Shown piece after piece: positions 1-16,479 of a stretch of 32,000 nt of DNA; the first letter of the stretch is position 1; each line of letters begins with the position of its first letter. The stretch is from Methanothermobacter thermautotrophicus str. Delta H (GTDB lineage: Archaea > Methanobacteriota > Methanobacteria > Methanobacteriales > Methanothermobacteraceae), in assembly GCF_000008645.1 (NCBI RefSeq), contig NC_000916.1:1080001-1112000 (forward strand). Reading direction: 5' to 3'. Both the position numbers and the translations under genes were made by a program. Under the pieces are notes generated by a model. The model searched no databases and had not been told where the DNA came from. It saw only the letters and a list, made by a program, of their open reading frames with translations.

Positions 1-50
1 CGGTTTCTCCCTCCTTCAGTGGTGCTCCATCATTCTCTTTCATGTCAATT

Positions 51-146
51 CAGCCCCATTTAGCATTAGCTCATCAACCATTAACTTGATCTGGGAGGTT
101 GAGTTTAGTCAGCCAGCCCCATATTTAGCATTAGCTCATCAACCAT
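51..146. repeat. Direct repeat: 31 nt (51-81) versus 33 nt (114-146), identical apart from a 2-nt indel. Copy B encodes the C-terminus of the 105..1001 gene; copy A lies downstream of its stop.
   Basis: Read directly: cagccccatttagcattagctcatcaaccat versus cagccccatatttagcattagctcatcaaccat. The flanks (82-113 versus 147-180) look weakly similar, suggesting a decayed ~63-nt tandem duplication. Confidence 0.85.
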
Positions 147-1001
147 CCCCCTAAATAGCTTTTTAAGGTGGGGATTGAAGATCACTGCGGGTAATCCGTT
201 GACCAGAGCATCTGTAAATGCCAAATCATAGGGTATTATTCCCATGATGGGTATCTCATTTCTATCTGCAAGATCTTCTATCTCAGCTGCGATCTCATGA
301 TTTAAATCATATTTATTGATTATTATGGAGTGTGGGATCCCAAAATGACTTACAAGTTCTATTGCACGTTTAGAGTCATTTATAGCTGCCTTTGTAGGTT
401 CCGTTACTATAATGGCCCGGTCACATCCCTTAACTGATGATACCACAGGGCAGCCAATACCGGCTGCTGAATCCAGGAGAGCCAGATCCATGCCCTCCGC
501 TCTTCCAATTTCAGAGACCTTTCTCCTCAGAGAATCCACAATCTTTCCTGAGCCTCTCTCACCAATTTTAAGATGGCCGGATACCACAGGGAAACCGTAA
601 TCAGACTTAAAATAGCAAATCTTTCCTGTATCCACTTCTTTGATGTCTATCGCTCTATCAGGGCATATATATGCACATGCTCCGCATCCTTCACAGAGAA
701 ATTCATTTATTTCAGGTTTTGAGTTCTTTGCACTCCATTTTATTGCATTGAATCTGCATACCCTCACACATTTCTTTCTTGATTTGCATTTTTCAGCCAT
801 TAAGAATGCCTTTTCAGAGGCCCTTATGGTTTCGCACTCCACATCCCCTGAAGATCCCATGATGAGTGCCAGATTGGGTGTGTCCACATCGCAGTCTCCA
901 AGGATTATTTCTGCTCTATCAGCAAGTAGAACAGCCATTGAAGCCACTATGCTGCTCTTTCCAGCCCCACCCTTTCCTGAGAGGATGCATACCTCCTTCA
1001 C
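105..1001 (-). CDS. MinD/ParA-superfamily P-loop ATPase with an inserted 4Fe-4S ferredoxin domain
   Basis: ORF 105..1022. Deviant Walker A SGKGGAGKSS lies near the N-terminus. Ferredoxin motif CEGCGACAYICP plus a second Cys group (CKSRKKCVRVC). The start is probably GTG at 1001, which has AGAGGTG 5 nt upstream and sits 1 nt after the upstream stop, rather than TTG at 1022. Confidence 0.8.
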   Translation of the reverse strand: MKEVCILSGKGGAGKSSIVASMAVLLADRAEIILGDCDVDTPNLALIMGSSGDVECETIRASEKAFLMAEKCKSRKKCVRVCRFNAIKWSAKNSKPEINEFLCEGCGACAYICPDRAIDIKEVDTGKICYFKSDYGFPVVSGHLKIGERGSGKIVDSLRRKVSEIGRAEGMDLALLDSAAGIGCPVVSSVKGCDRAIIVTEPTKAAINDSKRAIELVSHFGIPHSIIINKYDLNHEIAAEIEDLADRNEIPIMGIIPYDLAFTDALVNGLPAVIFNPHLKKLFRGMVDELMLNMGLAD

Positions 1002-1002
1002 A

Positions 1003-1878
1003 TTAACACCTCTGCATCTCAAGTAACCCTGCGACAGTATCTATTCCTGGAACATTAAGGGGTTCACCCCCTGAATAGGCCTCCATTAAATCCTTAGAAT
1101 ATTCTATTTCAGCCACAATGGGCCTCCCTGTTTCTCTGGAAACCTCGAGTACCGGGTCTGCGTTACCGATTCCTGCACGGTTGAGGATAATACTTGAAGT
1201 TACATCCAGCCTCTCAAGTAGCTCAAGTATCAGCTTCAGGTCATGACTCCCAAAGGGTGTTGGCTCTGTAACAGCAAAGGCAAGGTTAGCATCCATGATG
1301 GCATGTATAACATTACAGTGGACTCCTGCTGCTGTGTCAATGATTATGAAGTCCATATCATGGTTCTCTCTCGCATTTTTCATGAGTGAGTCCACCAATC
1401 GTGCGCTTGATTCTATATTCACAGTTGTTTCCCCGGAAAGTAACCTGAAATTTCTTCTAATTTTCTCATCATAATTTTCAGGGAGTTTGCCATCATAAAG
1501 GAATCCTGCGACCATATCCTCATCCTTTATTGCATTATTTCTGCATGAAAGACTGCATGTCCCACAGCCACTGCATCTATCCCTGACAAGAATTGGGTGC
1601 CTGCCCTCCACAAATACGATTGCATTTTTCCTGCACACCTCTGAACATTTACCACACATGGAGCAAGCTGAAAAATCAAAGGAGGGTATCTGAAGAGTTA
1701 CTTCATCTGTTTTTCTTCTCTGCACGGACAGGATTATGTGGTCATCTGGACACTCAACATCTGTGTCCACCAGGAGCACCCTGAATTTATCGGCGAGGGC
1801 TATGGCGAGAGAACATGCTATGGTTGATTTTCCTGTTCCTCCCTTTCCCCCGGTTATTGCTACCATTAAGGGCTTCAT
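1003..1878 (-). CDS. MinD/ParA-superfamily P-loop ATPase with an inserted 2x[4Fe-4S] ferredoxin domain (paralog of 105..1001)
   Basis: N-terminal Walker A TGGKGGTGKST. Two CxxCxxCxxxC motifs (CSMCGKCSEVC, CSGCGTCSLSC). GGTG SD before the ATG at 1878. Confidence 0.8.
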   Translation of the reverse strand: MKPLMVAITGGKGGTGKSTIACSLAIALADKFRVLLVDTDVECPDDHIILSVQRRKTDEVTLQIPSFDFSACSMCGKCSEVCRKNAIVFVEGRHPILVRDRCSGCGTCSLSCRNNAIKDEDMVAGFLYDGKLPENYDEKIRRNFRLLSGETTVNIESSARLVDSLMKNARENHDMDFIIIDTAAGVHCNVIHAIMDANLAFAVTEPTPFGSHDLKLILELLERLDVTSSIILNRAGIGNADPVLEVSRETGRPIVAEIEYSKDLMEAYSGGEPLNVPGIDTVAGLLEMQRC

Positions 1879-1908
1879 CGAAACACCGGCTCATCATGGA
1901 TTTAGTGT

Positions 1909-2283
1909 CTATCTTCTTCTCCTGCCACGGCCACTGCCTGGTGATCGTATCTCCTCAAGATTTCCCTCTGTGAAGAGCTTGAGATTCTCCTCAACTGATG
2001 TGCCGGTTGCCCGGTAAATTTTTATGCCCAGTTCATTCAGAACCTCAAATGCGTTTGGACCTGGTGAAGAAGCTATAACTGCCTTCACGCCATTATTTGC
2101 AATTATCTGGGCTGTCCTTATACCTGCTCCTCCTGAAGCTGATGCTGAAGGGTTCTCGATGACTTCGGAGGATTCTATATTACCCTTCTTCATTTCAACA
2201 ATCATGAAATAGGGAGCTCTGCCAAAAAATCTACTGACCTCTGATCCCAGATCGGTTCCAGAGGACGCTATTGCTATCTTCAT
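1909..2283 (-). CDS. Stand-alone NifX/NifB-C-terminal-type (dinitrogenase FeMo-cofactor-binding family) domain protein
   Basis: 124 aa. MKIAIASSG...SRFFGRAPYFMIVE...GGAGIRTAQIIANNGVKAVI is typical of the family and matches my memory of MTH1175. Its ATG overlaps the upstream stop by 1 nt (TAATG). Confidence 0.8.
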   Translation of the reverse strand: MKIAIASSGTDLGSEVSRFFGRAPYFMIVEMKKGNIESSEVIENPSASASGGAGIRTAQIIANNGVKAVIASSPGPNAFEVLNELGIKIYRATGTSVEENLKLFTEGNLEEIRSPGSGRGRRRR

Positions 2284-3101
2284 TAATTAGCACCACCATC
2301 TTTAAGGTATTTCGCCAGTTTATTGAAGATCTTCACCATCTCATTGTTGATGTATGAACTGGCTGATGATTCATTATCCCCGGATATCCCTGTTTCAAAG
2401 GGGATTTCACCCAGAAACTGGAGATCAAATTTGTCTGCAAGATATTTTCCACCATCTTTACCGAATAGAAATACCTTTTTGCCGCATTCTGGACACTGGA
2501 GATATGACATGTTCTCTATGATTCCCAGGACTGGAATCTTCAGGTGATTAACCATGTTGATACATTTTTCAACATCATGGATTGAAACTTCCTGAGGGGT
2601 TGTGACTATGACCACACCGTCAATGCCAGGAATGGACTGGAGAACCGTCAGTGGCTCATCCCCTGTTCCCGGAGGGTTATCCACAATTAAAACGTCGATT
2701 CCTTCCCAGTTAACATCTGCAAGTAGCTGTCTGATGGCTCCTGTCTTTTTTGGTCCCCTCCATATGACCGGTGTGTCCTCTGATGGTAAGAAAAACTCTA
2801 TGGACATTACAGTTGCACCCACTGGTGTGGGTATGGGGTTTATAAGATTTCCTGTCAGGGTGATCTCCGGTTCCCTGACACGCATCATCTTCGGGATATC
2901 AGGGCCGTGGACATCTGCATCAAGTACACATACACTGTAACCATTCCTGCTAAACTCTTCAGCAAGTTTTACTGTTACTGTGGACTTCCCAACACCTCCC
3001 TTTCCGCTCATAACAACGATTTTATGTTTTATTTTGGACAGGGCCCTCACGATTTTCACGTCCTGTTCCATTATGGCCAGTTTTTGAGCATCTTCAGTCA
3101 T
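2283..3101 (-). CDS. mrp: Mrp/NBP35/ApbC-family Fe-S cluster carrier ATPase
   Basis: Walker A SGKGGVGKST. Conserved CPECG (CxxC) motif. Family-typical blocks (VDNPPGTGDE, GIIENMSY). The ATG at 3101 with GAGGTG SD is preferred over the TTG at 3113. Confidence 0.85.
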   Translation of the reverse strand: MTEDAQKLAIMEQDVKIVRALSKIKHKIVVMSGKGGVGKSTVTVKLAEEFSRNGYSVCVLDADVHGPDIPKMMRVREPEITLTGNLINPIPTPVGATVMSIEFFLPSEDTPVIWRGPKKTGAIRQLLADVNWEGIDVLIVDNPPGTGDEPLTVLQSIPGIDGVVIVTTPQEVSIHDVEKCINMVNHLKIPVLGIIENMSYLQCPECGKKVFLFGKDGGKYLADKFDLQFLGEIPFETGISGDNESSASSYINNEMVKIFNKLAKYLKDGGAN

Positions 3102-3109
3102 GATGCACC

Positions 3110-3460
3110 TCAATGACGTCCGTTGCAGGGATCTGCATCTTCTCTGAGCTCACCCTTCTTGAGGAGGTTGAGTGTCTCAGCCACTGTTCCCCTGGCACCC
3201 ATCAGAACATCAACTCCATGGGTTCTGAGAAGGTTAATGGCCTTTGAACCCATATTTGTGCATATGAGGAGATCTGCATCGGAATTTACCACAATCTCTG
3301 CGGGTGTTAGTCTTCCTCCGGTGTGTCTTCCCTCTATTTTTATTATTTCCAGTTCATTTACTTCGTCATCATAAAAAGCGAATAGGGGCGTTTTTCCAAA
3401 GTGTTCTGAAACCTTTGAATCCATGCCCCTTTCTTCCATGACGGGAATACATATTTTCAT
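3110..3460 (-). CDS. Second NifX-like (FeMo-cofactor-binding family) domain protein
   Basis: The tracked ORF 3110..3637 overlaps the upstream gene. The internal ATG at 3460 (MKICIPVMEERG...SEHFGKTPLFAFYD) has a GGAGGA SD and sits 17 nt after the DUF134 stop. Family-typical N-terminus. Confidence 0.7.
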   Translation of the reverse strand: MKICIPVMEERGMDSKVSEHFGKTPLFAFYDDEVNELEIIKIEGRHTGGRLTPAEIVVNSDADLLICTNMGSKAINLLRTHGVDVLMGARGTVAETLNLLKKGELREDADPCNGRH

Positions 3461-3476
3461 TTTATGGTCCTCCTGT

Positions 3477-4046
3477 TCAGTCGGCGCCGCACATTGGTGC
3501 TCCGCACTTAGGACACTTCTCTGTTCTGCAGGGTACGCCTGGTGTTTTAGGTGCCTCGTATCCACATTCAATGCATTTGCAGACACGTGGAGCTCCTCGT
3601 CCAGCACCAAAGCCCCTTCCGTATCCGCCTCTGCCAAACCTTGGTATTGTTTCGGCTGATACGACGTTTATGTTCTCTGAACCGCAGTCCGGACATTTTT
3701 TGTATTCCTTTTCAGGTGAGATCCATTCGAACTGGCAGTCCATGCATTTGTATCTTCTTCTGTCTGTGATGTAATCACCTCCCTTCAGTATTATTGGTCT
3801 GCCCTCGACCAGAGCCGCTGCTATTTTACCCCGTGCTGATGTCAGGGTTCTGTGGAATGTTGGCTGTGATATTCCCATTATCTCAGCGGCCTTTTTCTGT
3901 TTGATGTCATGGTAGTCCCTCAGCCTTATTGCCTCAAATTCATCGAGGGTTATCTCAACCCCTGTCTCCTCGTCACTGGCTTCCGGAGAAAATGTGACCA
4001 CACGGGGTTCTCCAAGAATTCTTCTGAATCTTCTCGGTCTAGGCAT
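3477..4046 (-). CDS. DUF134-family predicted DNA-binding protein with a C-terminal extension carrying two CxxC...CxxC zinc ribbons and a Gly/Arg-rich linker
   Basis: MPRPRRFRR...F.P start and HTH-like segment KQKKAAEIMGISQPTFHRTLTSARGKIA are typical of DUF134. The C-terminus has CMDC..CPDC and CIECG..CPKCG separated by RFGRGGYGRGFGAGRG. Confidence 0.75.
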   Translation of the reverse strand: MPRPRRFRRILGEPRVVTFSPEASDEETGVEITLDEFEAIRLRDYHDIKQKKAAEIMGISQPTFHRTLTSARGKIAAALVEGRPIILKGGDYITDRRRYKCMDCQFEWISPEKEYKKCPDCGSENINVVSAETIPRFGRGGYGRGFGAGRGAPRVCKCIECGYEAPKTPGVPCRTEKCPKCGAPMCGAD

Positions 4047-4068
4047 GTTTTGAATATATATTCAAAAC
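4047..4068. promoter_or_regulatory. Perfect 22-bp palindrome GTTTTGAATATATATTCAAAAC abutting the ATG of the DUF134 gene; candidate operator
   Basis: All 11 base pairs of symmetry checked by hand. It lies between a TATA-like box (4071-4080) and the start codon (4044-4046). Confidence 0.6.
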
Positions 4069-4070
4069 TT

Positions 4071-4080
4071 GTATATATAG
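4071..4080 (-). promoter_or_regulatory. Candidate TATA box (CTATATATAC on the minus strand) with an A-rich BRE-like flank (GCAAAAA)
   Basis: Centred ~29 nt upstream of the ATG at 4046, with no SD in between. This implies a leaderless or near-leaderless transcript for the six-gene operon. Confidence 0.45.
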
Positions 4081-4153
4081 TTTTTGCACCAGCACCATGC
4101 AATCAGCTGAAAAGCCAGACCCCTCCCTAAATGGCTGTCCCACAAGCCCCTCA

Positions 4154-5188
4154 TCATATCTCCTTAAAAGGGACCAGGTCAATAACCGTTATCTCACAGG
4201 ATGATCCGAGACGTACAGGTGGACCCCATGTACCTGTGCCCTCCGAAACATAGAGGAACCCCCCTGAATCAGAATAAAGTCCCCTCAGAAATGGGAACAT
4301 CAGTCCCACGATGATGTTGAAGGGGTAGAACTGTCCGCCGTGGGTGTGACCAGAAAGCTGAAGGTCAACACCACGCTCCCTGGCATCCTCCCAGTCCACC
4401 GGCAGATGATGGAGGAGCAACACTGGCCTATCCTCATCAAATTCAAGTAAGTCGAGTATGGCCGGGAGCGAATGCCTCTCCATAGAATAACCAACACCTA
4501 TTATCTGTATACCCTCAAATTCGATGACAGACTGATCAATACACATTATGCCTGCATCAGAAACAGTTGATCTGAAGTCACCCGAATAGGTATCATGATT
4601 ACCCGAAACAAAAAATATCGGTGCTCCTGTTTCAAGGGATGATATAATGCTGGAATCCACAGGCCTTGAACCATCCAGAAGGTCCCCTGTTATTAAAACC
4701 GCTGCCGCTTCAACCCTCCTGACAGCCTCGGATACCTCTTTAAGGAAACCAGCAGATCGTACCGTTCCCAGGTGAATGTCTGATAGCTGGACGAACCTCA
4801 AGCTCTCCTCAACAGGAAAGGGAATCTCAACACGCTTAACCTCAATTTTTCTGGCCCTGAATACACCATATGAGACACTGAGTGCAGCCAATGATACAGC
4901 CAGGATCTTCAAGCATGGAAGATCCAGGAAGAACCATATAAACTGAACTAGGGCCCAGCCCGTGAGGAGATAGATCAGAAAGACCAGCCACAGCATTGAA
5001 AAAATGTAGGTGACCCTGGAAATGGGGTTCGGTCTCTCCCTCTCAAAAAGGATTGATGCCGGGAGAAGGATGGTCAGGGGGATGCTGATAAACCCCAACC
5101 CAAGAAATTCCAGAGCAAGGCTGTTTAGAAGGTAATAGGCAAGTGTGATGAAGGTGAGGAAAACAGAGACCTGGATCTCCCTCTTCAT
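4154..5188 (-). CDS. Membrane-anchored metallophosphoesterase (calcineurin-like, COG1408-type)
   Basis: About 4 N-terminal hydrophobic helices, then phosphoesterase motifs LSDIHLG, TGDLLD, SGNHD, GHTHGG. Confidence 0.8.
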   Translation of the reverse strand: MKREIQVSVFLTFITLAYYLLNSLALEFLGLGFISIPLTILLPASILFERERPNPISRVTYIFSMLWLVFLIYLLTGWALVQFIWFFLDLPCLKILAVSLAALSVSYGVFRARKIEVKRVEIPFPVEESLRFVQLSDIHLGTVRSAGFLKEVSEAVRRVEAAAVLITGDLLDGSRPVDSSIISSLETGAPIFFVSGNHDTYSGDFRSTVSDAGIMCIDQSVIEFEGIQIIGVGYSMERHSLPAILDLLEFDEDRPVLLLHHLPVDWEDARERGVDLQLSGHTHGGQFYPFNIIVGLMFPFLRGLYSDSGGFLYVSEGTGTWGPPVRLGSSCEITVIDLVPFKEI

Positions 5189-5271: not shown

Positions 5272-6173
5272 CTCTCAGGGAGGAGCTTCACCAGGATGTA
5301 GTCATACATCATGGACTTCCTGATCTCGGAGATATCCCCCAGCCGGTAATCAGATACCCTCACGTCGGCTATCTCCTCATGGTAGCGGTCATAGTTGAGT
5401 TTGACACGGACACCATCAAGCTGACTGGTGACAGGTGTCGGTGAGTACACCTCCTTTATGGCAGGTACCTGGTTCTCTATCTCGCTCTTCACAAGTATGG
5501 ATGGGACCAGAGGTGGATCAGCAGCCATATCGCGACTTCTCTTATCAAGGAGTCCCTCAACAACCTCCACAAGCTTCCTTAACGCTCGTATATCCTCTCC
5601 CCTCTTCAGCCTCCTGGGTATTCTTCCAAGTCCTCCAACGTAGGCGTCTGCACCTGGAAGATCCCTGAGGTCAATCTCGTCGGGGGAGCCGGTGACAACC
5701 ACCGGGATCTTTATGTCACTGAAGAGGTGGACCTTATCCTTTATGCACTGCTCAAAACTCCCCAGGGCGAACACTGCGAGGTCATGCTCCTCTATGAGCC
5801 TCTTCTCATCCTCAGATATTCTTGAAATGCCCTTACCCGCGCCACGGGCGAGTCCTATCATGTTATCCTTGGCACCGTACCTCCTGAGGTACTCTGATAT
5901 GTCACATGCAGAGTGGGGAAGGTGGTGCCTTGCCAGGGTCGGGGAGACAATGGCTATCTCGGTACCTGCCATGGGGGCCACCTTGATCTTCCCCAGGAGC
6001 TCCCTGGCCTTCTCCCTGACCTTATCCACATCATCTATTGGTACCGCCAGGGTGAGTATCAGGTCCATCTGAAGCATGTTCTCCTGGAGCACAAAGCCCC
6101 CCAGGTCCTCAATAAGTTCCTTCATCTCCTCATGGCGATGCACACCGCCCTGATACGTTAAGGTTTCATACAT
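5256..6173 (-). CDS. mmp7: Methanogenesis marker protein 7-like (McrC paralog)
   Basis: 305 aa. The block [24 protein letters not shown] resembles, from memory, the McrC block AMSPGRRHITKPVCEIT. Size and adjacency to a ~180-aa partner fit Mmp7. Needs HMM confirmation. Confidence 0.6.
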
Positions 6174-6688
6174 AGTTTCCTCTCCAGATACCTGTACCTG
6201 AATAGAGCCCTCTTAACAGGGTCCAGGGGGAGGTTCCTGTGTGAGGGCACCCTTATATAGTCAAGTTCCATGTAGTCAGGACATACAGTGAAGTCAGCAT
6301 CCCCATCAACCACGCTGAAGCCCATGTCCTCCACGATCTCCCTTAAGAAATTTGAATAAACCCTTACTTTTATTTTGCTGTTCCTCTCCCTGAGCCGTGA
6401 GGGGTCATGCCACCATGGAGAGCAGACCTCAAAGTCAATCTCACTGGTTGATGAATACTTGAGACTCTCAGGGTCCCTTTCATGGATTGTCTTAAAGACA
6501 GTGCCCACCGCCTCCCTTATCTGGGGGAATGTGTTGAGTTTAAGTTTAATGGCCCCCTCCAGGGGTGTCTCAGAGAGTACGAAGGCAACATCTGCATCCT
6601 CGTCCTCAGGGTTCCTGCTAACCCGGTATCCCCTGACACCTGCAATCCTCAGTATCCCCTCACACATGGGTGTTGTGACGATCCTCAT
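6158..6688 (-). CDS. Conserved methanogen protein, possibly methanogenesis marker protein 17
   Basis: Its 3' end overlaps the start of the mmp7-like gene by 16 nt, suggesting translational coupling. The call rests on size and synteny only. The start is ATG 6688 (GGGTGA SD-like upstream) or GTG 6700. Confidence 0.4.
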
Positions 6689-6776
6689 GAATTCACCCAC
6701 AAGCCTATATATCTCATCAATAAATTTCTCTATAATTATTATTTATAAGGTGTGCTGATGAACTGAAGGTGTGGCA

Positions 6777-8250: not shown

Positions 8251-8466
8251 ATGTACATAATATTCAGATGCGACTGTGGAAGGGCCCTCTACTCAAGGGA
8301 GGGTGCGAAGACCCGGAAATGCGTCTGTGGGAGAACCGTGAATGTCAAAGATAGGCGCATATTTGGAAGGGCCGATGACTTCGAGGAAGCATCAGAACTG
8401 GTAAGAAAACTGCAGGAAGAGAAATATGGCTCCTGCCATTTCACAAATCCATCAAAAAGGGAATAG
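8251..8466 (+). CDS. Small zinc-ribbon protein (DUF1922-like)
   Basis: 71 aa. CDCG...CVCG four-Cys ribbon at the N-terminus with an acidic helical tail. GTGAT SD upstream. Position matches my memory of MTH1184. Confidence 0.55.
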
Positions 8467-8476
8467 ATTCAGAGAT

Positions 8477-10066
8477 ATGATAGAAGACCTCAGATCATTC
8501 ACATCCCCTGGCGAGAGAAGGAACATAGAATTCAAGAAGGCCCTCTCAGCCAGGTATCACCTGAAGATGGACCGTAAGAAGGGCCTCATATCCCAGATGA
8601 AGTACCGTATGGAACGGGGTGACGGTAGGGCAGTGTACCTGCTGGGTGTGGAGGACAGCGGTGAACCGGTTGGCCTCCCTGCTGATAAACTGGATGAGTC
8701 AGTTGAGGTCCTCAGAACCCTCAGCAGTGAGATAGGTGCTGTTGTGGAGGAGGTTAACCTCCATGAGGGTACAGAGGGTATGGTGGCGGAGGTCATAATC
8801 TCAAGGAAGACGAAGACAGCGAGGGAGCACCTCCTCGTGGGGGTCGCCGGCCACGTGGACCACGGTAAGAGCACACTCCTCGGGACCCTCACAACAGGCA
8901 CCCCTGATGATGGGAGCGGTAAGACGAGGATATTCCTTGATGTCCAGAAGCATGAAATAGAGAGGGGTCTATCGGCTGATCTGTCCTTTGCAATCTACGG
9001 CTTCAGGGACGGCAGGCCTATGAGGCTCAAAAACCCCCTTGACAGGAAGGAGAAATCACGTCTCATGGACGAGGCTGACAGGGTCATATCCTTCGTTGAC
9101 ACCGTCGGCCATGAACCCTGGCTTCGAACAACCATAAGGGGGATTGTGGGTCAGAAACTCGACTACGGACTCCTCACAGTGGCAGCCGATGAGGGGCCTA
9201 CACACATAACAAGGGAGCACCTCGGTATAATGATCGCAATGGAGCTCCCGGTGATCGTGGTCCTCACAAAGTGTGATATGGCAGCCGATGAGAACAGGAG
9301 GGGTGTGAGGGAGAAGATATCCGAACTGCTTAAACTGGTTGGCAGGATCCCCTTCCATGTTAAGAGCCTGGACGCTGCAGCCGGGATAGCAGGTAAGATG
9401 AACCAGCACATAGTCCCCATAATCGAGACCTCCTCGGTTACAGGGGAGGGCCTTGAAATCCTCGATGAGCTCTTCCTCAACCTCAGGGTCCGGCGCGATG
9501 TTAACGGGGATGAAGAACCATTCCTCATGTACATAGACAAGATATATTCCATCAGGGGTGTTGGTACCGTTGTCAGCGGGACAATTCAGCAGGGACTTGT
9601 CAGGAAGGGTGACACCCTCCTCCTGGGGCCCCTCAAGACCGGTAAATTCAGGGAGGTCACCGTCAAATCAATAGAGATGCACCACTACAGGATAGGCTGT
9701 GCAGAACCAGGCCACATCGTCGGCATATCCATATCCGGGGCCTCGCCGGATGAGATAGAGAGGGGTATGATACTGGCACACCCTGACTATGATCCCGAAG
9801 CTGTGAGGGAATTCGAGGCAGAGGTTGCCATACTGGTGCATCCAACAACCATAAAGGCGGGCTATGAGAGTGTGACCCACATTGAAACCATAGCCGAGAC
9901 AACCGTTCTTGAACCCCTTGACTCTGATTTCATGTCTGCAGGTGACAGGGGCAGGGTGAGGATGAGGTTCAAGTACAGGCCCCACCATGTGAGGGAGGGT
10001 CAGAAGATAATCTTCCGTGAGGGAAGGAGCAAGGGCATAGGTTCGGTGACAAGGATCCTGGGATAA
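8477..10066 (+). CDS. GTPBP1-like translational-type GTPase (EF-1alpha-related)
   Basis: G1 [10 protein letters not shown]3 DTVGHE, G4 TKCD, followed by EF-Tu-like beta-barrel domains. ATG 8477 is chosen because ORF start 8426 overlaps the preceding gene. Confidence 0.8.
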
Positions 10067-10142: not shown

Positions 10143-10979
10143 TCAGCTTTTTATGAGTTCCAGGAACTCGCAGGCCTTACACTTATCCCCTGATGAAGGT
10201 TCCCCGCACCTCAGGCACTCCCTGAGGCCCTCGGTTTCACTGAGGGGCAGGAAGGTCCTGCTGAGTGATTCCATCACCCTTAACTTTACACCCTGTTTTT
10301 CTGATTCAAGATGGTTGAGGAAGTCCCTTATCCTTGACCTCATGGAGAGGTCAGAGTAGGGACAGGAGTCAAGGTGGACCTTCACATCATTGAGAACAGC
10401 CCACAGCCTCACCTCACTCTCAGGCGTGCTCCAGAGGGGTTTTATGCGCGGCACCATTGCCGGGTGTATCCTCTGAAGTTCTGGACCGAATTTTGAGAAT
10501 TTCCGCACATCACCCCTTGCGAGGCTCATGATGAAGGACTGGATCTCATCATCCATGTTGTGGCCCGTTGCAATCTTTGAGGCACCTATCTCACGTGCCG
10601 TCCTGTTGAGTATCCATCGCCTGAAGACACCGCAGGGTATGCAGGGGCTGCTGAATCTATCAGTGACACTGTCCAGTTCAAAATTGAATTCGTCCCTGAA
10701 TGACCTCTCTATGAGTTCAACTCCAAGGAGTTCTGCGTTCTCCCTTGCCACCATAACACCCTCACTTCGGTAGCCCCCTATCCCCTCGTCGACGGTTATG
10801 GCTGTGAGCTCAAAATCAAGGTCACTCCTGAGATCTGAGAGGGCGTGCAGTGTCAGTACACTGTCCTTTCCGCCTGAGAGTGCTACTGCAATATGTTCAC
10901 CGGGTTTTATGAGTTCATGACCCTCTATAAGTCCCCTGATCCTTCCCATGATTCTGTGATTGAATTCCTGAACATCCAT
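10143..10979 (-). CDS. PP-loop ATPase of the TtuA/Ncs6 (tRNA 2-thiolation) family
   Basis: PP-loop SGGKDS. Candidate Fe-S ligands CIPCG and SCPYS. C-terminal zinc ribbon CLRCG...CKAC. Confidence 0.7.
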   Translation of the reverse strand: MDVQEFNHRIMGRIRGLIEGHELIKPGEHIAVALSGGKDSVLTLHALSDLRSDLDFELTAITVDEGIGGYRSEGVMVARENAELLGVELIERSFRDEFNFELDSVTDRFSSPCIPCGVFRRWILNRTAREIGASKIATGHNMDDEIQSFIMSLARGDVRKFSKFGPELQRIHPAMVPRIKPLWSTPESEVRLWAVLNDVKVHLDSCPYSDLSMRSRIRDFLNHLESEKQGVKLRVMESLSRTFLPLSETEGLRECLRCGEPSSGDKCKACEFLELIKS

Positions 10980-12795: not shown

Positions 12796-13686
12796 TCACC
12801 GGAATATCCTGCCTAAATCCTGGTATCGGCCCCTGAAGAGTATTAGGACAAGGATTGCTGAAGCCAGGAGGAGGGTCAGGGGAGCTGTGTAGGGATCTGA
12901 TGGGCTCACCATGAGGGATGGGAGGTTCCCCAGACCGGCGTCAGGGGAGCTGTGTATGACGCTCACATAGAGATTGTTTGCAATGTGGACACCCATGGCC
13001 ATCTCCACACCATCATCTGCCAGCGTCACCAGTGCAAGCACAAGTCCTATGATGAAGGTGCTGACAGTTATTGAAAGGCTCATGCTAAGTGTCGCGCCGT
13101 TCCACCAGTGAAGGACCGAGAATATCGCTGAATTGATGATTATGAGCGGCACCGGCCTCTTTATGACAGACCAGATACCCTGCATCAGGTAGCCCCTGAA
13201 GAATATCTCCTCAAAGGATGCCTGGACCGGGAAGGCCAGTATGGAGAGGATTAGCAGCCACCAGAACCCTGAACCAAAATTGAATCTGACCCCTGATGGG
13301 TCAGCAAGGACCGATACCAGATCAAGCACACCAACTATGAGGAACCATGTGCCCGCGCCCCTCAGGATCCTCCGCCAGTCAAGGTATCCCCTCGAATTAA
13401 CTGCAGATATGAAATCCCTCTGGTGAATGAACTTCAGTCCAACATAGAGGAAGAACATTGAAGCTGAAAACCCTATGGCCACCATTATGAGGAGGGTGGG
13501 GCCGCTGAAGGATGACAGGTCCCCCAGCGCCCCCACACCACCCTTAAGTAGCAGGACGGCTGCGATGATGACACCCAGTATGAGGCCGGCTCCAACATTG
13601 GATGCCACGAAGCTCATAAATACTGTCATCACATATCTCCATGCATCATTCCTTCCCAGGTATACGTTGTTCAGAAAATCCTCCAT
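12796..13686 (-). CDS. CPBP-family intramembrane glutamic endopeptidase (CAAX protease-like)
   Basis: Polytopic membrane protein with the motifs EEIFFRGYL and FSVLHW. Confidence 0.75.
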   Translation of the reverse strand: MEDFLNNVYLGRNDAWRYVMTVFMSFVASNVGAGLILGVIIAAVLLLKGGVGALGDLSSFSGPTLLIMVAIGFSASMFFLYVGLKFIHQRDFISAVNSRGYLDWRRILRGAGTWFLIVGVLDLVSVLADPSGVRFNFGSGFWWLLILSILAFPVQASFEEIFFRGYLMQGIWSVIKRPVPLIIINSAIFSVLHWWNGATLSMSLSITVSTFIIGLVLALVTLADDGVEMAMGVHIANNLYVSVIHSSPDAGLGNLPSLMVSPSDPYTAPLTLLLASAILVLILFRGRYQDLGRIFR

Positions 13687-13803
13687 CCATCACCAGCTCC
13701 GATACTTACCTGATGACCATGAGTTTTTTTTAATAAATTACCGGTCATGTATCACACTAATCATCCGGCATTAATAAATATTTTGAAGTGGGAGTGTTGA
13801 ATT

Positions 13804-14946
13804 ATGATAACGGTAAATGAGGGTTCAGTCACCATAAGGGTCCCTGATTTCAGTAAGGTCTCGGCCAGGGCACCTGTATTCTACAACCCTGCCATGGAGT
13901 TCAACAGGGATGTGTCAGTGGTCGCGCTCCAGGTTTTCCAGAGACTCCTCGGTGGGGAGATTAGCGTTGCAGACACCTTCTCAGGAAGCGGTATAAGGGC
14001 CATAAGGTATCTGGTTGAGGTTGAAGGAGTCTCTGAGGCCTTTGCAAATGACATAAACCCGCTTGCAGTTGAATGCATAAAAAATAACTCAGTGATAAAC
14101 TCGGTGTCCCCTGAGGTCAGCAGAGAGGACGCCAGCATCTTCCTCAGGAGTAACCATGGCCGCTTTGATGTTATAGACATCGACCCCTTCGGGACCCCTG
14201 CACCCTTCATGGACTCTGCGGCGGCTTCTGCAAGGAACAATTCACTCCTTGCTGTTACAGCCACCGACACCTCAAGCCTCTGCGGCACCTACATAAAGCC
14301 CTGTCTGAGGAAGTACTCCTCAAGGCCCCTTAAAACAGAGTACTGCCATGAGACGGGACTGAGGATACTCGCAGGCTTCACAGCCATGAACCTTGCAAGG
14401 TACAGGAAGGCGGCCTCGGTACTCCTCTCCCACAGCAGCCAGCACTACATGAGGCTATACATCCGCGTGAGGAGGGGTGCAAGAAGGGCCGATGAATCCA
14501 TCAGGAATATCGGATTCATGCTTCACTGCTTCAGATGCCTTCACCATGAACACGTGAATGGATTTGCGCCCCTGAAACGTGAGTGCCCCCACTGCGGTGC
14601 CGAAATGGATGTGGCCGGCCCCCTCTGGGTCGGTGATATCCAGGACAGTAAATTCATCGGTGAGATGATAGGGGAGGTTGAGAACAAGGAACTCAACACG
14701 GCCGGAGATGTCCTTAAACTTCTGAAGGGATGTCTTGATGAAGCAGGGATGCCCCCTGGATTCTATGATATCCATGAGGTCTGCAGTAAGCTTGGAAGGA
14801 GTGCACCACCTCTGAGGGATGTTATGGATGGTCTTGAGGCGGCCGGTTTCAGGGTTTCAAGGACCCATATAAGGCCGACGGGTATAAGGACCGACGCCGG
14901 TATAGGGGAGATTGAGGAGGTCCTGGCAGGACTCATGCCGGAATAG
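13804..14946 (+). CDS. trm1: tRNA (guanine26-N2)-dimethyltransferase
   Basis: FYNPAMEFNRDVSV, DIDPFGTP, and a Cys4 insertion (CFRC...CPHCG) are typical of archaeal Trm1. Confidence 0.85.
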   Translation: MITVNEGSVTIRVPDFSKVSARAPVFYNPAMEFNRDVSVVALQVFQRLLGGEISVADTFSGSGIRAIRYLVEVEGVSEAFANDINPLAVECIKNNSVINSVSPEVSREDASIFLRSNHGRFDVIDIDPFGTPAPFMDSAAASARNNSLLAVTATDTSSLCGTYIKPCLRKYSSRPLKTEYCHETGLRILAGFTAMNLARYRKAASVLLSHSSQHYMRLYIRVRRGARRADESIRNIGFMLHCFRCLHHEHVNGFAPLKRECPHCGAEMDVAGPLWVGDIQDSKFIGEMIGEVENKELNTAGDVLKLLKGCLDEAGMPPGFYDIHEVCSKLGRSAPPLRDVMDGLEAAGFRVSRTHIRPTGIRTDAGIGEIEEVLAGLMPE

Positions 14947-14987
14947 AAGTTGGGGGAGTTGAAGCAGTACTCACCCCCGGCTCTCGA

Positions 14988-15674
14988 TCATTCATAGTTG
15001 AGCATGTTATGGGTGTAGTAATACTGCAGTGACCTTGCATTCCTGATCTCAAAGTTCCTGTAGGGGTTGTTGAGGTAGGGAAAGATCATTCCCTTCAAGC
15101 AGTAGAGGTATGCTCCAATGGGGCCATACTCATTCCTGGCAATTTTATAGTAGAGGGGGAATCCACAGCCCTGGTTTATGAATATCTCACCCTGCCTGAC
15201 CGTGCCGTGGTATACGAGGGGTATGGGCCCCTCCTGACCGTGCTCAGCCGCCCTCTCCTTTATGTATGCAAGGGCCTCGTCCAGTGTTCCGAATTCCCTT
15301 CCATCTGAACGGTAGGTCCACTTATCGTCAGGTATGCCGTATATTCCCTCCTGCCATACCTCTGTCCAGTTTATGCCCGGCGTGTACTGCTTCTTTTCAA
15401 CGTAGGCGAGTTCAAGGATGTAAACGTCGCCCTCCATGTAGCAGCGGTAATTGGAGCTTCCGCCGTAATGGACCACCAGAATGCACTTCGATCCCCTTTC
15501 ACGGGCATAGTCTGCCAGTAGTTTTGAGTGTATATGACCTGGGTACATATCTGGATTTGCAATTTTAACAAATGCAAGCCTTCCCAGGGGCTCAAAGTCC
15601 CCCTGTGTCCCTGTAAAGTAAAGGTAACCCCCTCCGATTACCAGTAAAGCTATGATGAGTATCCCCTTCTTCAT
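14988..15674 (-). CDS. Hypothetical protein with an N-terminal signal/anchor helix and a Tyr-rich extracytoplasmic domain
   Basis: MKKGILIIALLVIGGGYLYF hydrophobic start. No family recognised by eye. Confidence 0.5.
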   Translation of the reverse strand: MKKGILIIALLVIGGGYLYFTGTQGDFEPLGRLAFVKIANPDMYPGHIHSKLLADYARERGSKCILVVHYGGSSNYRCYMEGDVYILELAYVEKKQYTPGINWTEVWQEGIYGIPDDKWTYRSDGREFGTLDEALAYIKERAAEHGQEGPIPLVYHGTVRQGEIFINQGCGFPLYYKIARNEYGPIGAYLYCLKGMIFPYLNNPYRNFEIRNARSLQYYYTHNMLNYE

Positions 15675-15801
15675 CAGTTCACCTGCTCGAGATATTATTA
15701 ACTTTGTAGCGATTTATATCTTTCTCTAAACAGATTAGGCAGTTTTATATGTGACTATTTATATAGTTTTACCTGCGGGAATCCGCGGAGGTGTGAAAGA
15801 T

Positions 15802-16479
15802 ATGGATATAGGTGAAATTGTAAATGATGCCATAAGGTACCCCTCCAGTGACTGGAAGAAGGTCATAATACTGGGTGTCCTTATAATAGCCAGTATTCTA
15901 ATTCTACCCGTCTTCCTGGTCATGGGGTACGGTTTCAGGGCGCTGAAGGCCTCAATAGCTGGCTTCGATGAACTGCCTGAATTCGATGAATGGGGAGAAA
16001 TGTTCGTCGATGGGCTCAAGGTATTCGTTGTTCAGATAGCATACATGATAGTTCCACTGATAATTATATTCGCAGGTGTTCTTGGTTCCTTTACTATGGT
16101 TTCACCAGACACAGGTGTTATCACAAACCCCACAGCATTCACAGGCCTCGTAGGAGGTACAACGATAATAGGCATAATACTCGCAATTATCCTTGGACTC
16201 ATAGAGACAATAGCCATCGCACACATGGCCTACAATGACAGCGAACTCGGTGCAGCCTTCAGGTTCAGTGAGATACTTGACGTGATATCCCAGATCGGAT
16301 GGCTGGACTACATAATCTGGTACATCGTTGTGGGTCTGATCTCAGCGGTGATGGCATTCATTGCAAGTTTCCTGAATGTGATACCGGTTCTGGGTACCCT
16401 GATCGCGGTCCTCATAATATACCCCTACATCCAGCTCTTCTGGAACAGGGCCCTTGCACTCAGATACGCCTACGAATAA
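15802..16479 (+). CDS. DUF4013-like polytopic membrane protein
   Basis: The MDIGEIVNDAIRYPSSDWKK start followed by several TM segments is typical of DUF4013. ATG 15802 with GGAGGTG SD is preferred over GTG 15751. Confidence 0.6.
   Translation: MDIGEIVNDAIRYPSSDWKKVIILGVLIIASILILPVFLVMGYGFRALKASIAGFDELPEFDEWGEMFVDGLKVFVVQIAYMIVPLIIIFAGVLGSFTMVSPDTGVITNPTAFTGLVGGTTIIGIILAIILGLIETIAIAHMAYNDSELGAAFRFSEILDVISQIGWLDYIIWYIVVGLISAVMAFIASFLNVIPVLGTLIAVLIIYPYIQLFWNRALALRYAYE

Follow-up and report, generated by a model that had tools for sequence, protein, structure and literature searches.

What do six tightly packed genes of Methanothermobacter thermautotrophicus str. Delta H do together, and does the system that they form have known relatives? 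The genes, MTH1178 to MTH1173, lie consecutively on the minus strand, from position 4046 down to 105, of the 32,000-nucleotide stretch of contig NC_000916.1 (positions 1,080,001 to 1,112,000) that was analysed here and is called the window. Their products are a DUF134 helix-turn-helix (HTH) protein, two small NifX-like proteins, an Mrp/NBP35 carrier and a pair of MinD-type ATPases with inserted ferredoxin domains, referred to as MinD-ferredoxin ATPases. An earlier note on this DNA had read them as a self-regulated machine that carries a complex Fe-S cofactor or inserts it into an unknown client, and had stated that no function was, to its knowledge, assigned to this gene combination. We arrive at a different identification, to which as a whole we give a probability of roughly two in three: the locus represents, in an archaeon, the orp ('orange protein complex', ORP) cluster known from Desulfovibrio, it overlaps the IssA family, and its six genes are the first of a seven-gene operon. 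The operon is an unstudied member of a described cluster family and not a new kind of system. The orp cluster has in fact been studied (PMC6345978), a structure of MTH1175 has existed since 2000, and the protein was assigned to the IssA clade (PMC5524996), so that the statement about function does not hold. That the locus belongs among the ORP/IssA-type Fe-S handling clusters and is autoregulated by DUF134 is, in our judgement, highly probable.

Layout of the operon and its counterparts in other organisms

The elements of the operon, as read from the list of open reading frames (ORFs) and the reverse-strand sequence, are:

4072..4079, minus strand: TATA-like box TATATATA, the sole match of at least 7/8 to the archaeal consensus TTTATATA on the coding strand of 1-4300
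4048..4067: 20-bp perfect palindrome TTTTGAATATATATTCAAAA between the TATA-like box and the DUF134 ATG; candidate DUF134 operator ('DUF134-box', TTATG-N10-CATAA type)
3477..4046, minus strand: MTH1178, 189 aa, DUF134 protein (Pfam DUF134, PF02001, E=2e-43)
3110..3460, minus strand: MTH1177, 116 aa, single-domain NifX-like protein (Nitro_FeMo-Co, PF02579, E=1e-20)
2283..3101, minus strand: MTH1176, 272 aa, Mrp/NBP35 Fe-S carrier ATPase (Mrp, PF10609, E=2e-89; GKGGVGKS and CPEC motifs)
1909..2283, minus strand: MTH1175, 124 aa, NifX/IssA-like protein (Nitro_FeMo-Co, PF02579, E=3e-25)
1003..1878, minus strand: MTH1174, 291 aa, Orp3/Orp4-type member of the MinD-like ATPases, with a deviant Walker A motif and a 2x[4Fe-4S] ferredoxin insert
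105..1001, minus strand: MTH1173, 298 aa, second MinD-ferredoxin paralogue (GTG start; alternative TTG at 1022)
58-81 and 123-146: two exact 24-nt direct repeats, duplicating the 3' end of MTH1173
1..43, minus strand: 5' end of MTH1172, 407 aa, a cation diffusion facilitator (CDF) fused to a NifX-like domain (CDF-NifX), completed from public contigs carrying MTH1175

The layout first described for these genes, six on the minus strand with gaps of -1 to 30 nt, is borne out. From MTH1178 to MTH1173 the intergenic distances are 16, 8, -1, 30 and +1 nt, the last becoming -20 nt if the TTG start is used, and the chosen starts (ATG at 4046, 3460, 3101, 2283 and 1878; GTG at 1001) match public gene calls. 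Exact look-ups of the proteins return the tag MTH_1178 for the DUF134 protein and strain Delta H accessions for the rest. GGAGG or GAGGTG, both Shine-Dalgarno-like, stands ahead of most internal genes, and neither is present ahead of the first gene, MTH1178. A single TATA-like box without an evident internal promoter, also part of the original description, is again what we find. The box is separated by 25 nt from the first ATG, that of the DUF134 gene, and its centre lies about 29 nt upstream of it, a spacing that suggests a leaderless or nearly leaderless mRNA. No oligo-T run occurs in any spacer between the operon genes; several T5-T6 runs were noted within coding regions. The six genes of the unit as first drawn thus stand, but its end at 105 does not, since a seventh gene on the same strand starts at 43.

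This seventh gene, MTH1172, encodes Cation_efflux (9e-49) and ZT_dimer (6e-17) domains followed by a C-terminal Nitro_FeMo-Co domain (5e-11), and its closest solved relative is Escherichia coli FieF/YiiP (1e-25). The first two domains are common to FieF/YiiP-type CDFs, from which MTH1172 differs by the additional NifX-like domain and by a site A that reads H-D-H-D rather than D-D-H-D as in YiiP. A comparable fusion had been noted on one earlier occasion: an Acidithiobacillus operon with a predicted Fur box includes a CDF whose C-terminus bears an 'MTH1175' signature (PMC1874648). The direct repeats encode the last residues of MTH1173, MVDELMLN, twice, and it is this duplication that creates the 61-nt spacer ahead of MTH1172 in strain Delta H; a second Methanothermobacter strain, L001, has no such spacer, and its two equivalent genes lie 1 nt from each other.

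Both ATPases of the pair are of the CbiA/MinD type, with the deviant Walker A motifs GKGGTGKS and GKGGAGKS, and both contain inserted Fer4 motifs. Matches to minD_arch score 52-68 bits against a cut-off of 202, the aligned parts being the halves that flank the ferredoxin insert. MinD is their closest solved relative, and no solved structure matches a full-length MinD-ferredoxin protein or DUF134. Ferredoxin CxxCxxCxxxC motifs had been ascribed to both proteins: MTH1174 does contain two full motifs, with 8/8 ferredoxin Cys present, but MTH1173 has one full motif and a degenerate first one in which Arg replaces the second Cys. That second Cys is retained in 64/66 second paralogues of other genomes, and MTH1173 may hold a 3-Cys or otherwise altered cluster. 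Among 66 pairs from the loci described below, both paralogues keep the signature Lys, the Walker A Lys and the eight ferredoxin Cys almost without exception. Cys188 in switch II of MTH1174 is kept in 58/66 first paralogues, and a Cys seven residues past the Walker B Asp, spaced like Cys132 of NifH, is found in 58/66 first and 64/66 second paralogues. The C-terminus of MTH1173 is an amphipathic helix.

Profile hidden Markov model (HMM) searches place the 116-aa and 124-aa proteins in the NifX/NifB-C-terminal family, as had been proposed, both far over the gathering cut-off. MTH1177, whose ATG is preceded by GGAGG, has its closest solved relatives in Thermotoga (1t3v, 1o13) and lacks a cationic tail. 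MTH1175 is 100% identical to PDB entry 1EO1 and matches the Desulfovibrio orange protein structure 2wfb at 4e-11; its C-terminus is an 11-residue cationic tail, SPGSGRGRRRR, and its start overlaps the stop of MTH1176 by 1 nt. The assignment of MTH1176 as an Mrp/NBP35 protein with CPxC is likewise confirmed (Pfam 2e-89, CPEC). Against the NCBIfam model MrpORP (NF041136) it reaches 318 bits over model positions 1-244 of 365, and against ApbC 207 bits; the 450-bit MrpORP cut-off is missed because the fused NifX-like domain is absent, and both MTH1177 and MTH1175 align to the C-terminal third of this model. MTH1176 also ends in an amphipathic helix.

This part list corresponds closely to the ORP system. 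In Desulfovibrio vulgaris, Orp3 and Orp4 possess two [4Fe-4S] ferredoxin motifs each and are similar to Mrp/ParA/MinD ATPases, Orp8 is the orange protein, isolated with a non-covalent [S2MoS2CuS2MoS2] cluster, Orp5 is a further ORP subunit, and Orp9/MrpORP combines an Mrp with a 'Di-Nase' (NifX-like) domain in a fusion; Orp3 and Orp4 co-purify with Orp8, and all three receive Fe-S clusters from MrpORP (PMC6345978). The two systems share two paralogous MinD-like ferredoxin ATPases, single-domain NifX-like proteins (Orp5/7/8), an Mrp/NBP35 protein and a restriction to anaerobes. They are linked further by a Desulfobacteraceae locus (L080 in our numbering of loci), retrieved with the Methanothermobacter MinD-ferredoxin profile, in which a fused MrpORP (498 bits, cut-off 450) directly precedes the ATPase pair; the archaeal and Desulfovibrio clusters therefore form one family. 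An archaeal origin of the ORP system has been suggested in the Desulfovibrio literature (PMC8359166).

The differences concern arrangement and control. Desulfovibrio has two divergent operons, whereas Methanothermobacter has one operon with an archaeal TATA box, and the Mrp-NifX fusion of the former is represented in the latter by split genes with a 1-nt overlap. The Methanothermobacter version has a CDF-NifX gene attached. Expression of the Desulfovibrio orp genes requires a low redox potential, read by an Fe-S sensor, and OrpR has been reported only in Deltaproteobacteria (PMC8359166); this regulator is a sigma-54 activator acting with IHF, whereas Methanothermobacter has a DUF134 HTH protein and a palindromic candidate operator. 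The protein complex and the Fe-S transfer by Mrp were demonstrated for Desulfovibrio and would apply to the archaeal counterpart by analogy. The possibility that a study of orthologs already explains the cluster had been allowed for from the outset: orthologs have indeed been studied, but the cluster has not been explained by this work, its role being called 'unclear' (PMC8359166).

IssA, the thioferrate nanoparticle storage protein of Pyrococcus furiosus, shares the IPR003731/PF02579 domain with MTH1175, which served to model IssA and was assigned to its clade, one that accepts short-tailed members (PMC5524996). IssA ends in a long cationic tail rich in Gly and aromatic residues; in the operon a Gly/Arg/aromatic stretch is found in MTH1178, the DUF134 protein, instead. 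The cited literature treats IssA as a single protein and does not mention a partner ATPase, Mrp or regulator. The same small domain constitutes NifX, NafY and the C-terminal domain of NifB, non-covalent binders of inorganic metal-sulfur cofactors in nitrogenase assembly, where NifH is a deviant Walker-A partner with a Cys seven residues past the Walker B Asp; the operon ATPases are closer to MinD and carry the ferredoxin insert, nif genes were not found near the operon among the ORFs tested, and the phyletic spread of the module far exceeds that of diazotrophs. Within the Mrp/NBP35/ApbC family (Cfd1-Nbp35, Ind1, ApbC), MTH1176 has the deviant Walker A and the CxxC that bridges a [4Fe-4S] cluster. 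It differs by lying in a dedicated cluster with its likely clients and by the absence of the N-terminal DUF59 domain of many ApbC proteins.

Conservation and gene neighbourhoods

Conservation of the locus was assessed by a profile scan with aligned MinD-ferredoxin homologues, using one genome per species. The scan returned more than 550 relatives, of which the best 80 loci were kept, and the ORFs of these loci were classed by profiles built from the window proteins. The 80 loci span Methanobacteria, Methanosarcinales, Bathyarchaeia, Asgard archaea, DPANN, Patescibacteria (candidate phyla radiation, CPR), Chloroflexi, Desulfobacterota, Bacteroidales and other groups. Cluster members were found as follows:

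66/80 loci: tandem ATPase pair, mostly with a 4-nt overlap
71/80 loci: NifX-like gene within 3 kb
30/80 loci: DUF134
24/80 loci: Mrp
21/80 loci: CDF, usually fused to a NifX-like domain

All unclassified neighbour ORFs of the 80 loci were clustered and the clusters then checked against Pfam, giving these recurrent neighbours:

31 loci: DUF5320
16 loci: metallo-beta-lactamase-fold protein
15 loci: radical-SAM protein
9 loci: DUF59/FeS_assembly_P
6 loci: NifU_N
6 loci: FeoA/FeoB
6 loci: TrmO_N

At least one of DUF134, Mrp and CDF is present in 27 of the 37 loci that have enough flanking DNA. The conserved module is one or two NifX-like genes plus the tandem MinD-ferredoxin ATPases, often accompanied by DUF134, Mrp, DUF5320 and CDF-NifX. 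The gene-neighbourhood comparison that had been suggested for this locus shows the gene set to recur in 80 unrelated genomes, so that the grouping is not due to chance. The recurrent neighbours of the 80 loci include no nif-type gene family, and the neighbourhoods contain no Min partner (MinC/MinE).

The proteins of the DUF5320 family are rich in Gly, Arg and aromatic residues and have one conserved Cys, which is the composition described for the IssA tail. Many of the NifX-like proteins encoded in the clusters, and DUF134 regulators too, have similar Gly/Arg tails. In various lineages members of the cluster are fused to one another, as Mrp-NifX, CDF-NifX, DUF134-DUF5320 and NifX with a 6-Cys motif, and such fusions argue that the members work jointly.

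These observations bear on the simplest alternative, that the genes are neighbours and nothing more, each expressed and used on its own and not as part of one functional unit. No transcript data for the locus were found in the literature, and the T5-T6 runs within its coding regions could be cited for this alternative. It is opposed by the gaps of -1 to 30 nt, the Shine-Dalgarno-like sequences at internal genes and the one TATA-like box, by the recurrence of the same genes together in 80 distant genomes, usually with 4-nt overlaps, by the fusions just listed and by the joint rise of four cluster proteins in Methanococcus voltae described below. Mere adjacency is consequently hard to credit.

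The DUF134 protein and the palindrome upstream of it

The HTH assignment of MTH1178 made from sequence is confirmed by Pfam (2e-43). The protein is composed, in this order, of the DUF134 HTH (residues 3-94), a Cys4 zinc ribbon, a Gly/Arg-rich linker and a 6-Cys motif, CxCxxCG-x8-GxPC-x4-CPxCG, whose six Cys are invariant. In the AlphaFold (AF2) model the HTH has a pLDDT of about 90 and the linker is disordered. Foldseek relates the HTH to sigma-70 region 4 (SigE/SigR), DeoR and GerE DNA-binding domains, superposing 40-50 residues at root-mean-square deviations of 0.6-0.8 A, although so short a domain yields weak E-values. The tail of MTH1178 is related to DUF5320 in homologues and has an IssA/DUF5320-like Gly/Arg composition.

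The last part of this protein (3477-3602), a Gly/Arg stretch followed by CxCPxCG-x8-GxPC-x4-CPxCG, was also found in 118 representative protein families. Stand-alone proteins of 45-110 aa predominate; in some cases the motif is fused to DUF134 or to a NifX-like domain, and in two to DUF2213. Pfam covers the motif in these 118 families with nothing beyond generic zinc ribbons. The survey is informative about the modularity of the motif and not about its function.

The palindrome between the TATA-like box and the DUF134 start codon follows a pattern, TTWTG-N10-CAWAA, that has two matches in the window against 0.03 expected. The second match, TTATGGCTGTGAGCTCAAAA at 10796-10815, was set aside as probably due to chance; its inner positions are not palindromic and it lies within an NcsA/TtuA-like tRNA-thiolation gene. 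Across the 80 loci, 19 palindromic sites were counted, compared with 0.81 in composition-preserving shuffles (maximum 5 in 100 shuffles), and 19/19 fall inside the cluster spans, which make up 39% of the sequence (p=1.7e-8). DUF134 is encoded in 13/17 site-bearing loci versus 17/63 of the others (odds ratio 8.8, p=3e-4), and one further site-bearing locus, the fourteenth, has a frameshifted DUF134 gene. In widely separated lineages, among them Methanosarcinales, Nanohaloarchaeota, Patescibacteria, Ignavibacteria, Zixibacteria and Bacteroidales, a site directly precedes DUF134, DUF5320 or the first NifX-like gene. Given this recurrence beside distant archaeal and bacterial clusters, DUF134 probably has its operator in this palindrome. 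Placed as it is in Methanothermobacter, it would block use of the promoter and would result in autorepression of a leaderless operon, and the self-regulation proposed in the earlier note is plausible, the conserved palindrome overlapping the promoter.

Two of the loci deserve separate mention. In Methanobacterium sp. MZD130B (L013, 7606-8165) frameshifts and stops interrupt the DUF134 gene that follows the palindrome, representing either a pseudogene or an assembly error, and the remaining cluster is intact. In another Methanobacterium locus (L007, 5375-5889) feoA, which belongs to the FeoA/FeoB neighbours counted in 6 loci, is divergent from the DUF134 gene with the palindrome in the common intergenic region, where the box might also control iron uptake.

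In the searchable literature we found no account of a DUF134 operator or of the function of DUF134 or DUF5320. The DUF134-box, the tail architecture of DUF134 proteins, the link between DUF5320 and IssA and the CDF-NifX seventh gene appear to be undescribed.

Proposed function and the methyl-coenzyme M reductase neighbourhood

The best reading of the operon is a self-regulated module for iron-sulfide trafficking and homeostasis. Within it, the general notion of an Fe-S or metal-sulfide handling module, already put forward in the earlier note, is upheld. A dedicated inserter for one client is not favoured, considering the spread of the module to DPANN, CPR, Chloroflexi and Desulfobacterota and its neighbours FeoAB, NifU_N, DUF59 and CDF.

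Hints to function come from M. voltae. On pyrite this organism holds about twice as much iron and shows a thioferrate-like electron paramagnetic resonance (EPR) signal (PMC8516115), and two 'IssA homologues', Mvol_0689 and Mvol_0693, are more abundant (PMC9431491). The fold changes on pyrite are 2.3 for Mvol_0689 and 4.3 for Mvol_0693, both NifX-like, 5.0 for Mvol_0691 and 2.6 for Mvol_0692, with a 37-fold change for an adjacent radical-SAM protein (PMC9431491, supplement). Mvol_0691 and Mvol_0692 would be the orthologous ATPase pair, judging from their CbiA/MinD-type annotation (the old family name) and from gene order, with the ferredoxin insert presumed.

Starting from the observed gene content, conservation, fusions and cis element, a ligand, a direction of reaction and a sensing mechanism can be proposed. 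A DUF134 dimer would bind to the 20-bp palindrome that follows the TATA box and repress the operon from which it is made, and its Gly/Arg-rich tail and 6-Cys motif would sense iron-sulfide species, leading to derepression. The NifX/IssA-like proteins would hold anionic inorganic iron-sulfide, or a related metal-sulfide, non-covalently. Mrp would carry [4Fe-4S] clusters, which it would supply or receive, and load the ferredoxin domains. The MinD-ferredoxin heterodimer could then use ATP and low-potential electrons for the interconversion of stored iron-sulfide and protein-bound clusters or for their hand-over, a step that would resemble the coupling of ATP to electron or cluster transfer by NifH-type ATPases. 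Finally, the FieF-like CDF-NifX transporter would remove surplus divalent metal. This specific mechanism of iron-sulfide storage, mobilisation and export is offered tentatively, as a possibility that is less likely than not.

Several points weigh against the identification and the function proposed from it. The 80 loci are the best of more than 550 matches to one profile and not a random sample. The H-D-H-D site A of MTH1172 is of a type typical of zinc transporters, so that the transported metal need not be iron. Equating the conserved Cys of the ATPases with NifH Cys132 is a lead that relies on a weak ungapped alignment of the C-terminal half (score 37) to a NifH sequence, and a profile-profile comparison of the MinD-ferredoxin alignment with NifH aligned the first 50 residues, the P-loop region, alone. 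The cationic tail of IssA comprises 70 residues, whereas that of MTH1175 comprises 11 and MTH1177 has none. That the M. voltae fold changes are increases was deduced from the main text together with the way in which a neighbouring sheet uses signs. NifX-like relatives bind FeMo-co or NifB-co, a Mo-Cu-S cluster, thioferrate or [3Fe-4S] (PMC6345978, PMC5524996). Literature experiments on the operon proteins consist of the apo nuclear magnetic resonance (NMR) structure of MTH1175 alone, with MTH1172-1174 and MTH1176-1178 not mentioned in the papers searched. Lastly, the Desulfovibrio group itself favours a cell-division role for the ORP complex.

According to that last view, the ATPases form a MinD/ParA-like positioning system in cell division and the metal centres serve as redox sensors only. 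Loss of OrpR in Desulfovibrio leads to morphological defects and MrpORP is found at one cell pole (PMC6345978, PMC8359166). MinD being the closest solved relative of the ATPases fits with this, as do the amphipathic helices at the ends of MTH1173 and Mrp, similar to the membrane anchor of MinD, and the original annotation as 'cell division inhibitor related protein'. However, no cell-division genes recur beside the cluster, whereas iron and Fe-S genes and metal transporters do; expression in M. voltae follows the iron/sulfur source; and the ferredoxin inserts, the NifX-like partners and the CDF fusion are without a counterpart in Min systems. The Desulfovibrio authors, moreover, describe the role as unclear (PMC8359166). 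We consider a positioning function very unlikely.

A different ligand is conceivable as well. Methanogens need Mo or W for formylmethanofuran dehydrogenase, and the module might handle thiomolybdate, thiotungstate or copper-sulfide, for detoxification or for the supply of Mo or W to enzymes. This idea draws on the Mo-Cu-S cluster with which Orp8 was isolated (PMC6345978) and on the ModA-like binding protein that adjoins the Acidithiobacillus CDF with the MTH1175 signature (PMC1874648). Yet no Mo/W transport or cofactor genes are among the recurrent families obtained by unbiased clustering of neighbour ORFs, the response in M. voltae was to the iron/sulfur source, and the module is present in small-genome CPR and DPANN organisms. 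To our knowledge, such organisms are not expected to rely on Mo/W enzymes. A thiometallate function is therefore doubtful, with a small share of the probability.

If the iron-sulfide reading is true, anaerobes own a dedicated and regulated system for sulfide-complexed iron that is distinct from the ferritin/Fur/DtxR logic of aerobes. The MinD-ferredoxin pair with its NifX-like partners is widely conserved in strict anaerobes, including DPANN and CPR organisms with minimal genomes. Three threads of the literature, the ORP complex of Desulfovibrio, the thioferrate store IssA of Pyrococcus and the pyrite-responsive 'IssA homologues' of M. voltae, have so far been separate, and the DUF134 and DUF5320 families together with the CDF-NifX transporters join them in one conserved cluster. 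The predictions that result are an operator, TTATG-N10-CATAA, a sensor consisting of the Gly/Arg tail and the 6-Cys motif, and a trigger, iron-sulfide load. These new features make the question of ORP function, fifteen years after the complex received its name, more testable.

In Methanobacteriales the genomic setting raises a further alternative. Downstream of the operon are two convergent radical-SAM genes and then mcrBDCGA, encoding methyl-coenzyme M reductase (MCR); upstream are a metallophosphoesterase gene and then the gene for methanogenesis marker 7 (mmp7), whose product matches chain H of the MCR activation complex 8S7V (3e-101). In a reading close to that of the earlier note, the operon could encode a system devoted to carrying and inserting a complex cluster of the nitrogenase type (NifB-co/L-cluster), whose clients in Methanobacteriales could be McrC and Mmp7 of the activation complex. 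The NifB product would then travel on the NifX-like proteins, with insertion driven by the NifH-like ATPase pair. NifX and NafY domains do bind NifB-co and FeMo-co (PMC8351635), an L-cluster-like [8Fe-9S-C] is present on McrC and Mmp7 (PMC12176620), and Methanobacterium (L007, L013) shows an unchanged order of mmp7, operon, two radical-SAM genes and mcr operon.

Among the loci, mmp7, mcr and radical-SAM genes are nevertheless neighbours of the operon in Methanobacteriales only; both loci from Methanosarcinales (L022, L079) lack them, groups without MCR (CPR, DPANN, Chloroflexi, Desulfobacterota) commonly have the module, and in Methanothermobacter marburgensis nifB is located with other mmp genes at a separate locus (PMC12176620). 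The recurrent neighbours are general iron and Fe-S genes. That the window has no nitrogenase structural genes, as had been stated at the outset, agrees with our analysis: nifHDK, nifEN and nifB were not found among the tested ORFs, which cover the window up to 27 kb, or among the called genes of a 10-kb flank. An insertase for a nitrogenase-type cluster is unlikely. The narrower version, in which the Methanobacteriales module is the missing machinery that carries NifB-made [8Fe-9S-C] clusters into McrC/Mmp7, must be called a long shot; were it true, a widespread iron-sulfide handling system would have been recruited for the delivery of complex clusters outside nitrogen fixation. As a general explanation the MCR link was rejected: mmp7, the phosphoesterase gene and the two radical-SAM genes are confined to Methanobacteriales loci, and the MCR neighbourhood is therefore lineage-specific.

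The genes of this neighbourhood are of interest in their own right. The metallophosphoesterase gene (4154-5188, minus strand) encodes a 344-aa calcineurin-like protein (YaeI/LpxG-like) with a hydrophobic N-terminal third; it lies between mmp7 and the operon, a position seen in Methanobacteriales only. It was rejected as a member of the operon, being separated from it by 107 nt that include the promoter and being absent from the clusters of other lineages. At 6158-6700 (minus strand) an ORF of 176-180 aa overlaps the start of mmp7 by 16 nt and stands beside mmp7 in all Methanobacteriales loci. It has no match in Pfam, NCBIfam or PDB, and its product may work with Mmp7 as a partner so far overlooked. 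The two convergent radical-SAM genes between operon and mcrB (13481-16017 in locus L002, just beyond the window) encode proteins of 430 aa, with a B12-binding domain, and of 415 aa. They directly precede mcrBDCGA and are presumably MCR modification enzymes (Mmp10-like and a glutamine methyltransferase).

The remaining window encodes ComB, tRNA-modification enzymes, CofG, MptA, PurP, a proteasome subunit, aCPSF1 and the like; no Rfam family was found anywhere in the window. One further gene, at 8426-10066 (plus strand), encodes a 546-aa translational-GTPase-like protein with partial, sub-cut-off matches to SelB and EF-1alpha and a 130-residue N-terminal extension; public contigs have a small DUF1922 gene call immediately ahead of it.

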